A stretch of DNA of 64,000 bases from an uncultured Gammaproteobacteria bacterium (GTDB lineage: Bacteria > Patescibacteriota > Patescibacteriia > UBA9934): positions 250,620-314,619 of the forward strand of contig CAYFMS010000001.1 in assembly GCA_964344415.1 (NCBI GenBank). Direction: 5' to 3'. Position numbers and translations under genes: made by a program. Shown in pieces: positions 35,926 through 36,722 of this stretch (its first letter is position 1; every line of letters starts with the position of its first letter). The notes beneath the pieces were generated by a model. It was given only the letters and a program-made list of their open reading frames with translations, was not told the origin of the DNA and ran no database searches.

Positions 35926-35964
35926 CCTTCTGCGGGGTAGAGCAGTCTGGTAGCTCGTCGGGCT

Positions 35965-36599
35965 CGACCGTGATACAGTTCTTTTCATGGATACAAAATA
36001 TAAAGGAGATATTGGAGAGCAAGCAGCTATTCTTCATGCATTGAAGAATGGGTACAATGTCCTGTCACCTATTGGTGATAGACTCCCGTATGATCTCGTA
36101 TTTGAACGAGATGGTATTTTCCTTCGAATACAGGTAAAGACTGCTTGGTTCGATAGGAAGAAAGAGAACTTTGTCGTTGATGTACGACGAACAAAGACAA
36201 ATCGCCGTTTCATGAAGCGAGATAGTTACTGTGAGGAAGACTTTGACTTTGCACTTGTATATCTCATTGAAAAAGATATCTTCTATGTTTTTCCTGTAAA
36301 TGTTTTTATAGGTTATGGTAGTGAGATACATTTTGTAGAAGTGAATAAGCGTCAGCGAAAACCGAAATCAGCAATGTTTCGAGACGCATGGGAATTGTTG
36401 TCGCAATGGGCCGCATTGCATGAAAGTGCATGTCAGTATTCTGTCAAATTCGGGGAAGCCTCTGTTGATGGTGATCCCGAGCCAAGCCCGCAAGGGAAGG
36501 TGTAGAGACTTGACGGCAGACACCCTAACGATTCGTCGTGGGTGAAGAGAAAGTCCAGACCACAAATCTTTTAGAGCGACGAAAGTCGTAGTTGGTAAG
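35965..36599 (+). mobile_element. Putative group I intron inserted between U33 and C34 of tRNA-fMet
   Basis: Upstream exon ends in U and the insertion ends in G, as group I splice-site rules require; contains an endonuclease-like ORF; ribozyme core not verified by eye. Confidence 0.55.
35987..36505 (+). CDS. Intron-encoded PD-(D/E)XK-family (Hjc/I-Ssp6803I-like) homing endonuclease candidate
   Basis: GDIGEQAAILHALKNGYNVLSPIGDRLPYDLVFERDGIFLRIQVKTAWFDRK matches the G..GE...L...G..V...D...D...E.D...(E/Q)VK restriction-endonuclease-fold signature. Confidence 0.55.
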   Translation: MDTKYKGDIGEQAAILHALKNGYNVLSPIGDRLPYDLVFERDGIFLRIQVKTAWFDRKKENFVVDVRRTKTNRRFMKRDSYCEEDFDFALVYLIEKDIFYVFPVNVFIGYGSEIHFVEVNKRQRKPKSAMFRDAWELLSQWAALHESACQYSVKFGEASVDGDPEPSPQGKV

Positions 36600-36722
36600 C
36601 ATAACCCGAAGGTCATTGGTTCAAATCCAATCCCCGCAACCAAAAACCTGTCTAGTTTTCTAGGCGGTTTTTTGTTTAACCAAGTGGGACGTCAGATCCC
36701 TTCAGATCCCTGTCGTGGTAAC

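Follow-up and report, generated by a model that had tools for sequence, protein, structure and literature searches.

A 64,000-nucleotide (nt) stretch of contig CAYFMS010000001.1 (assembly GCA_964344415.1, positions 250,620 to 314,619; hereafter, the window, in whose coordinates all positions are given) contains an initiator tRNA gene, tRNA-fMet, interrupted in its anticodon loop by a 635-nt insert with an open reading frame (ORF) for a putative homing endonuclease (HE). The element is very probably a mobile, IC3-like group I intron residing in the genome of an Uhrbacteria-like Patescibacterium. This reading is carried by the anatomy of the insert, the homology of its ORF, covariation in the ribozyme, an insertion polymorphism at the orthologous locus and the taxonomic distribution of its relatives. 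From these, we infer splicing, cleavage activity and current mobility of the element.

The split gene and its flanks comprise the following features:

35897–35925, + strand: sigma-70-like promoter TTGACA-17 nt-TATTCT, 10 of 12 consensus matches, with a start at about tRNA position 1.
35931–35964, + strand: 5′ exon of tRNA-fMet, positions 1–33, last base U33, TGCGGGGTAGAGCAGTCTGGTAGCTCGTCGGGCT; the same as the 5′ part of the uninterrupted gene of locus L099 (see below).
35965–36599, + strand: group I intron, 635 nt, inserted at 33/34 (after U33, ending in G36599), as determined from the sequence, Rfam, ARAGORN and a comparative alignment.
36600–36642, + strand: 3′ exon of tRNA-fMet, from C34 to the CCA end, CATAACCCGAAGGTCATTGGTTCAAATCCAATCCCCGCAACCA.
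36648–36677, + strand: hairpin and T-run resembling an intrinsic terminator; similar hairpins follow the orthologous tRNA genes.

When joined, the two exons form a 77-nt tRNA-Met(CAU), for which ARAGORN draws a regular cloverleaf; the exon junction after splicing would be ...GGGCU joined to CAUAACCC. The anticodon stem contains three consecutive G:C pairs (G29–G31:C39–C41), the D stem is GAGC/GCUC with A11:U24, and the CCA end is encoded. Of the features of an initiator tRNA, the CAU anticodon with three G:C pairs and A11:U24 are present, and an unpaired 1:72 is missing. The original prediction, made from the sequence alone, had described just such a split initiator tRNA with an insertion between U33 and C34 ending in G, and both the coordinates and G36599 bear this out. 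With its default settings, ARAGORN does not report the gene; with introns allowed, it finds a tRNA-Met with a 635-nt intron. Default tRNA finders miss the initiator gene, and an annotation would wrongly call the initiator tRNA absent. The sole other tRNA(CAU) gene in the window (33746–33822), which has G1.U72 and an anticodon stem with just two G:C pairs, is no initiator. The promoter, also noted in the original prediction, has a layout that precedes the uninterrupted initiator tRNA genes of four relatives as well (L099, L105, L106 and L108); promoter-like sites are no more numerous in the region than in shuffled sequences.

The anatomy of the intron is given below; where no other source is named, the helices are those of the comparative structure.

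35961–35966, + strand: 5′ strand of P1 (exon GGCU and intron CG), with the 5′ splice site after U35964; read from the sequence, the guide core GGGC being present in 70/70 introns.
35970–35981, + strand: 5′ strand of the P1 extension, which pairs with 36392–36404 and closes the loop holding the ORF.
36392–36404, + strand: 3′ strand of the P1 extension, within the ORF, with U36398 bulged; the Rfam match begins at 36392.
36406–36412, + strand: internal guide sequence AUGGGCC; GGCC pairs with exon GGCU (P1) and AUG with CAU of the 3′ exon (P10).
36413–36433, + strand: P2 hairpin with a GAAA loop; 9/9 pairs covary in the family, and the register in the window was read by hand and partly reproduced by the minimum free energy (MFE) fold.
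36440–36520, + strand: P3 (36440–36445/36515–36520), enclosing P4, P5, P6, P6a and the 5′ strand of P7.
Within 36440–36520, + strand: P4 (36450–36455/36475–36480) and P5 (36458–36460/36470–36472).
Within 36440–36520, + strand: P6 (36481–36483/36499–36501) and P6a (36487–36489/36494–36496) with a GCAA loop.
Within 36440–36555, + strand: P7, 5′ strand 36507–36511 and 3′ strand 36551–36555, a pseudoknot added by hand.
36521–36555, + strand: P8 (36521–36530/36537–36544), followed by J8/7 and the 3′ strand of P7.
36559–36598, + strand: P9.0-like helix (36559–36563/36591–36596), enclosing P9 and P9a.
Within 36559–36598, + strand: P9 (36567–36569/36573–36575, 3 bp) and P9a (36577–36580/36585–36588) with a GAAA loop.
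36599, + strand: omega-G, the final nucleotide of the intron, an invariant column of the 76-sequence alignment.

A search with the Rfam covariance model RF00028, a check proposed together with the original prediction, gave a match at 36392–36576; its 53.2 bits exceed the gathering score of 50, with E 1.1e-10 over the 64-kb window. For the comparative alignment, 76 distinct introns, found via relatives of the ORF in GTDB species genomes, were each represented by their 3′ 232 nt together with 12 nt of exon; the invariant columns of this alignment include the window by construction. RNAalifold recovers P2, P3, P4, P5, P6/P6a, P8, P9 and P9a from the 76 introns, with compensatory changes in 36 of the 46 predicted pairs. 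The addition of the P7 pseudoknot and the P9.0-like helix by hand brings the structure to 56 pairs in total, and 97.5% of its cells are paired, versus 83.3% in column shuffles and 30–41% with slid partners. Changes on both sides occur in 41 of the 56 pairs, and none of 500 shuffles attains any of the five measures used. In P7, four of the five pairs are invariant, and the fifth (alignment columns 239:295) changes from U-A to G-C in 11 sequences. The window sequence forms every pair from P3 to P9a except the outermost pair of P9; the register of P2 is shifted, and one U in it is bulged. Judged by the Rfam score and this covariation, the insert can be regarded as a group I intron with a signal above chance, as had been suspected, and the P1 U.G pair and P3–P7–P9 can all be folded.

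At the 5′ splice site, P1 consists of the wobble pair U35964.G36409 followed by C35963:G36410, G35962:C36411 and G35961:C36412, and on the intron side C35965 and G35966 pair with G36408 and U36407. The motif AAUGGGC, which in the window is A36405–C36411, lies about 195–260 nt upstream of the 3′ splice site in 46 of the 70 relatives examined, namely, those introns whose sequence window reached the guide position, and its GGGC core is found in all 70. In P10, A36406-U-G36408 can pair with CAU of the 3′ exon; these positions vary little across the family. Just outside P1, positions 35970–35981 and 36392–36404 form an extension of 12 bp with one bulged U. This extension covaries: with the intron's own partner, all seven proximal pairs can form in 50% of cases, versus 15% with partners taken from other introns. 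Given the location of the guide sequence at 36406–36412, it is the terminal loop of the extended P1 that holds the ORF. In HE-less relatives (243–244 nt), the same P1 helix has a short loop. From the guide sequence to omega-G, the ribozyme measures 195 nt. Judged from sequence likeness, the intron may belong to subgroup IC3, its core being nearly sequence-identical to that of the fMet 33/34 introns classed as IC3 by Nakagawa et al.

The intron encodes one protein:

35987–36505, + strand: ORF of 172 amino acids (aa), homing endonuclease of the I-Ssp6803I family; the nuclease domain spans residues ~1–137, and codons ~136–172 double as ribozyme elements.

Residues 1–137 of its product match positions 1–137 of the 138-position Pfam profile PF11645 (PDDEXK_5) with E 1.8e-48 (164.5 bits versus a cut-off of 26.1). 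A comparison with the structure of I-Ssp6803I, also suggested at the outset, yielded E 2.4e-53 and 84 identical residues of 143 (59%) without gaps for chain A of PDB entry 2OST, which was deposited as a "putative endonuclease" and is tied to I-Ssp6803I by the literature. A search of the ORF against NCBIfam gave no meaningful match, and the endonuclease gene is unnamed in the sources searched. The motif residues D8 and E11 (the acidic residues of helix 1), D36 (PYD), Q49 and K51 (Q-V-K) are all present, and going by family conservation we take these to be the catalytic residues. The 2OST chain has Q at the position of the family E11, which fits an inactivating mutant. The Q-V-K motif had seemed a deviation from EVK in the original prediction; this concern falls away, as 2OST also has QVK, and Q49 and K51 are among the positions conserved in at least 99% of the family. 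The window protein keeps 40 of the 41 positions with this level of conservation among the 119 closest homologues. At positions conserved in at least 90%, it deviates in 4 of 81, the family mean being 2.1 (standard deviation 2.0), and 22 of the 119 members deviate as much or more. This conservation indicates purifying selection and not a decaying ORF. The ORF resides in a group I intron located at the very target of the I-Ssp6803I family, the anticodon loop of tRNA-fMet. Taken together, profile, structure and location support its assignment as a PD-(D/E)XK homing endonuclease of the I-Ssp6803I family, in agreement with the early proposal.

The last ~35 codons of the ORF run through P1′, P2 and P3–P6, and this overlap makes up the first 100 nt of the ribozyme. 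An overlap of the ORF with the ribozyme had been considered as one possibility in the original prediction; the core of only about 94 nt, or the degeneracy, considered along with it did not hold, given the 195 nt mentioned above. The stop codon of the window ORF is the UAG of the invariant J6/7 GUAGAGACU. The P4 motif keeps a constant reading frame throughout the 71 ORF-bearing introns. The P4′/P6 motif CCCGAGCCAAG, which follows the length-variable P5 loop, occurs in two reading frames (44 loci versus 22), giving protein tails with either ...PSQA... or ...PEPS.... At 31 of the 71 loci, the ORF ends before P4, commonly at 149 aa. The overlap is constrained as RNA and not as protein, and the C-terminal tail of the ORF looks dispensable. 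Judging from this anatomy, the ribozyme would be unable to fold while a ribosome occupies the last third of the ORF, and translation and ribozyme folding of one RNA molecule should be mutually exclusive. Speculatively, and we consider this improbable, the intron-bearing gene is the only initiator tRNA gene of the genome, with endonuclease synthesis and tRNA maturation excluding each other in every precursor and thus forming a feedback. If this were true, all translation initiation in a reduced genome would depend on the self-splicing of a ribozyme; translational activity would be coupled to the supply of initiator tRNA, and the element would act as an RNA-level feedback and not be purely selfish.

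The genes around the intron indicate its host. The best named relatives (~74–81% identity) of elongation factor EF-G, encoded at 8765–10864, belong to Candidatus Uhrbacteria and the "Patescibacteria group", and a protein near the locus has a T4SS-pilin domain typical of the Candidate Phyla Radiation (CPR), so that the CPR-like genome assumed earlier is corroborated. The GC content of the window is ~39–52%, typically ~43%. The GC content of the HE gene is 38% versus 41.5% in its flanks, and over 71 loci it tracks that of the flanks (r = 0.73), which argues against chimeras and for a long residence in each host. The same HE protein is present on six contigs; the four listed, from three ENA assemblies and one Logan assembly (runs ERR2281801-803), all have an identical 635-nt intron and the same flanking genes wherever these are visible. 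The intron lies within the 768-kb contig k127_100043 (ENA ERZ930061, PRJEB17505).

Orthologues of the upstream UbiA-family gene, at 42–48% identity, lead to three contigs (L105, L106 and L108), one of which is from the same metagenome. In all three, the gene order is tRNA-Leu(CAA), tRNA-Met, UbiA and then an uninterrupted initiator tRNA gene, which is identical to the spliced window tRNA at 69–73 of 77 positions and has a TTGAC(A/G)-17-TA(C/G)TAT promoter and a terminator. No group I match was found at these three uninterrupted loci. A scan of metagenomes for the ligated-exon sequence revealed 16 uninterrupted genes. The uninterrupted gene of L099 is 100% identical to the joined exons of the window and has the promoter TTGACA-17-TATTCT; given this identity and the shared promoter, the window exons match a working gene, and related organisms do possess intron-less targets. 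A tblastn comparison of the window neighbours with the 16 metagenome loci containing the intron-less tRNA showed no synteny. Compared with its orthologues, the locus is clearly polymorphic for the presence or absence of the intron, which is an insertion and not ancestral.

A protein search for relatives of the ORF returned 1534 homologous clusters, several of which bear the NCBI name "group I intron-associated PD-(D/E)XK endonuclease" (Patescibacteria, Nitrospirota, Cytophagales, Sulfuricaulis and others). With one genome taken per GTDB species, 455 stretches encode a relative of the ORF, the window's own genome not being among those returned, and the intron architecture was scored on the best 80 of them. 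In 70 of these 80, the ORF lies inside a 602–713-nt intron at 33/34 of an initiator-type tRNA. At five further loci, which the strict exon pattern missed or mis-sized, it lies in a 654–736-nt intron within tRNA(CAU), so that the count of ORFs inside a tRNA(CAU) intron is at least 75 of the best 80 loci. These 80 loci cover at least 14 phyla, and eight of them are labelled Patescibacteria. The element is far more widespread than published surveys state, and the rarity outside cyanobacteria that made the original prediction attractive has to be given up.

The nearest intron neighbour bears the same phylum label for just 33 of 71 introns, and the nearest DNA relatives of the window intron, ~70% identical, are from Acidobacteriota and Bacteroidota. 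Intron relatedness, as far as can be read from these sequences, does not follow host phylogeny and would indicate horizontal spread, although the binning of metagenome-assembled genomes (MAGs) can err. Across MAGs labelled Patescibacteria, Methylomirabilota and Nitrospirota, the introns of L020, L024, L034, L040 and L041 share 91–99% identity, explained either by very recent transfer between phyla or by mis-binning of contigs.

Some loci depart from the common architecture. Among the best 80, the five not yet accounted for are of this kind: four labelled cyanobacteria (e.g., Nostoc carneum NIES-2107) and one unclassified MAG, all with the same tRNA sequence (L053, L054, L057, L063 and L068), have an ORF-less 243–244-nt intron at tRNA-fMet 33/34, and the endonuclease gene is free-standing ~95–280 nt past the 3′ splice site. 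A free-standing endonuclease beside an ORF-less intron is reminiscent of "collaborative homing". At L018, L025, L048 and L069, an endonuclease-bearing intron is located in a tRNA(CAU) without the full GGG run in the 5′ strand of the anticodon stem (CUUGG, CCAGG, CGAGG and CAAGG). Three of them (L025, L048 and L069) are labelled Patescibacteria, namely, Uhrbacteria, Parcubacteria and Doudnabacteria, and L018 is an unclassified MAG. These are either atypical initiators, or the endonuclease tolerates target variation there. Four viral contigs from IMG/VR (L101–L104) contain ORFs of the I-Ssp6803I family, 143–153 aa in length and 46–54% identical to the window protein, which are free-standing in tRNA gene clusters, each ending at or overlapping the first bases of an uninterrupted tRNA-Met(CAU). 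On three of the four contigs, this tRNA has an anticodon stem that deviates from the usual fMet target. The viral ORFs resemble intron-less homing, and viruses are a possible vehicle for the spread between phyla.

The following cycle can be proposed. Transcription from the own promoter of the gene would give a precursor of ~710 nt, in which the guide sequence at 36406–36412 would pair with the exon end GGCU and place U35964.G36409 at the 5′ splice site, which an external guanosine would then attack. G36599 would next enter the P7 site, with P10 (CAU:AUG) aligning the 3′ exon, and ligation of the exons would release the 77-nt tRNA(CAU). By analogy with the characterised enzyme, the endonuclease would cut across the anticodon stem-loop of tRNA-fMet genes that have no intron, and repair of the cut would copy the intron in.

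Several observations weigh against this reading of the element as a splicing, mobile intron. Position 1:72 of the tRNA is U1:A72, a weak Watson–Crick pair, instead of the usual mismatch (C1/A72). The pair is common to the window, L099 and L106, while the orthologues L105 and L108 have C1/A72, and it looks like a lineage variant; weak 1:72 pairs still permit formylation in E. coli. The contig measures at least 768 kb, of which 64 kb were covered by the reading, and a further initiator tRNA gene may lie outside. As for the ribozyme, P6a (3 bp) and P9 (3 bp) are shorter than in relatives, and the core is the shortest of the 76 aligned introns (194 nt versus 196–262 nt). The single-sequence MFE fold reproduces most helices with an energy no better than that of shuffled sequences (z = −0.93), and because of this the structural case rests on comparative evidence. 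In the enzyme, D40, conserved in at least 99% of the family, is replaced by E, and no Shine–Dalgarno sequence is visible before the AUG of the ORF. The closest HE relative is just 65–67% identical, so that a recent transfer of this copy is undocumented.

Part of these points would fit a resident, splicing-competent intron with an inactive endonuclease, late in the homing cycle, inherited vertically and with an ORF that has not yet decayed. The distance to the closest relative, the D40E substitution and the lack of a visible ribosome-binding site can be read in this way, and so can the composition, which is fully ameliorated to the host; many relatives have HE-less fMet introns, so loss of the ORF is common. 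However, the ORF is intact and keeps the near-invariant residues with the one exception, including those at the positions of the catalytic motif, and its deviations are within the family range, which points to continued purifying selection. We therefore regard an inactive enzyme as rather unlikely, while granting it some weight. The atypical 1:72 pair, the minimal P9 and the unread remainder of the contig, where another copy is possible, would also suit a tRNA pseudogene broken by a dead insertion, with an intact tRNA-fMet elsewhere in the genome. Yet the exons are fully identical to an uninterrupted gene elsewhere, the promoter and terminator are kept as in the orthologues, the conserved ribozyme nucleotides and core helices are all intact, and the sequences at both splice sites follow the group I rules. 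Moreover, the only other tRNA(CAU) in the window lacks initiator features, and the intron is located where three relatives keep their initiator tRNA gene. All this makes a pseudogene very improbable.

An artefact of assembly or binning, by which the intron of another organism was joined to a CPR contig, seems hardly credible. Mis-binning is conceivable for those related introns that are nearly identical across MAGs of different phyla; in the case of the window, however, the identical intron occurs in four contigs from separate ENA and Logan assemblies with the same visible flanks, it lies within a 768-kb contig, the GC content of the HE gene matches that of the flanks, and the flanking gene order matches that of CPR relatives. 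The reading as a mobile group I intron with its own endonuclease is thus retained.

Several other features of the window can be noted. Between UbiA and the tRNA promoter, an ORF of 121 aa (35528–35893) has no Pfam match; the relative L106 has a shorter ORF of 71 aa at the matching position. Further upstream, the final 26 nt of the tRNA-Leu(CAA) region (33552–33577) recur as an exact copy 166 nt downstream (33718–33743). The spacer between the tRNA-Leu and tRNA-Met genes is GC-rich and folds strongly (z = −4.7), with an acceptor-like closing helix, a T-arm-like hairpin and a CCA end; Rfam contains no match for it. In L105, one of the relatives, just 1 nt separates the two tRNA genes. The spacer looks like either a tRNA-like RNA or a small inserted segment flanked by an att-like duplication.

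On the − strand, positions 52237–52336 contain a tRNA-shaped gene (Rfam tRNA model, 52.3 bits) in which the 7-nt anticodon loop is replaced by 34 nt. Its fold (−47.5 kcal/mol, z = −5.3) is a cloverleaf with a rod-like anticodon arm of ~20 bp, composed of 7 bp, a 2 × 2 internal loop, 11 bp and a CUAU loop. With introns allowed, ARAGORN describes it as tRNA-Tyr(GUA), split at 32/33 by a 25-nt intron. A group I intron would need more length than this insert has, and the insert shows no bulge-helix-bulge motif. The window contains no second copy of the hairpin, and no similar gene was found in the fetched loci.

The closest known system is the tRNA-fMet intron of Synechocystis sp. PCC 6803 with its endonuclease I-Ssp6803I (Bonocora & Shub 2001; Zhao et al. 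2007; 2OST), which occupies the same host gene. Position 33/34, where the window intron is inserted, is the insertion site reported for cyanobacterial tRNA-fMet introns (PMC13011429). Both enzymes belong to PF11645, are 59% identical without gaps over 143 aa and share the D...QVK motif. The target sequence around the anticodon loop is presumably as in Synechocystis. The hosts differ, one being a cyanobacterium and the other a Patescibacterium. The window ORF has 172 aa and continues through P2–P6 to the UAG of J6/7, whereas the 2OST chain has 151 aa and the ORFs of many relatives end after 149 aa. Unlike the Synechocystis system, the window has trimmed P6a and P9 helices and a U1:A72 tRNA.

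A compact IC3-type core with GAAA tetraloops on P2 and P9 is also that of the intron of the Azoarcus tRNA-Ile(CAU), and its J3/4-P4, P6 and J6/7-P7 would be very similar to those of the window; the Azoarcus intron resides in another tRNA, at another insertion position, and has no ORF. The HE-less IC3 introns at tRNA-fMet 33/34 of cyanobacteria and Bacteroidota (Paquin et al. 1997; Nakagawa et al. 2026, Table S5) share with the window both the site and nearly the same core motifs, GUCAAAUUCGGGGAAGCC, CCCGAGCCAAGC, GGUGUAGAGACU and GCAGCGAAAGCUGU. They are 243–305 nt in length with a short P1 loop, whereas the P1 loop of the window intron holds ~410 nt of ORF.

The tRNA introns described from Patescibacteria in 2026 (tRNA-Asn/Asp 35/36, subgroup IA, some with HNH; tRNA-Met(CAU) 33/34 in two complete genomes) have in common with the window the host phylum, a site in the anticodon loop and the fact that default annotation misses them. 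In contrast to the window intron, which is IC3-like and has a PD-(D/E)XK enzyme, they are not IC-type. In the same survey of 4,934 complete genomes, tRNA-fMet 33/34 introns bearing PF11645 were found in just two Cyanobacteriota, HE-less IC3 fMet introns in Bacteroidota, and tRNA-Met(CAU) 33/34 introns in two Patescibacteria; no IC-type tRNA intron was present among 95 complete Patescibacteria genomes, and more HE-bearing introns were predicted for draft genomes (PMC13011429). The window element is a case of the kind so predicted. No new mechanism is revealed: it is a known kind of element, now in a Patescibacterium, neither degenerate nor exceptional in its architecture. The tRNA-fMet intron is a good natural system for homing across phyla into a universally conserved target on the scale of 23 bp.

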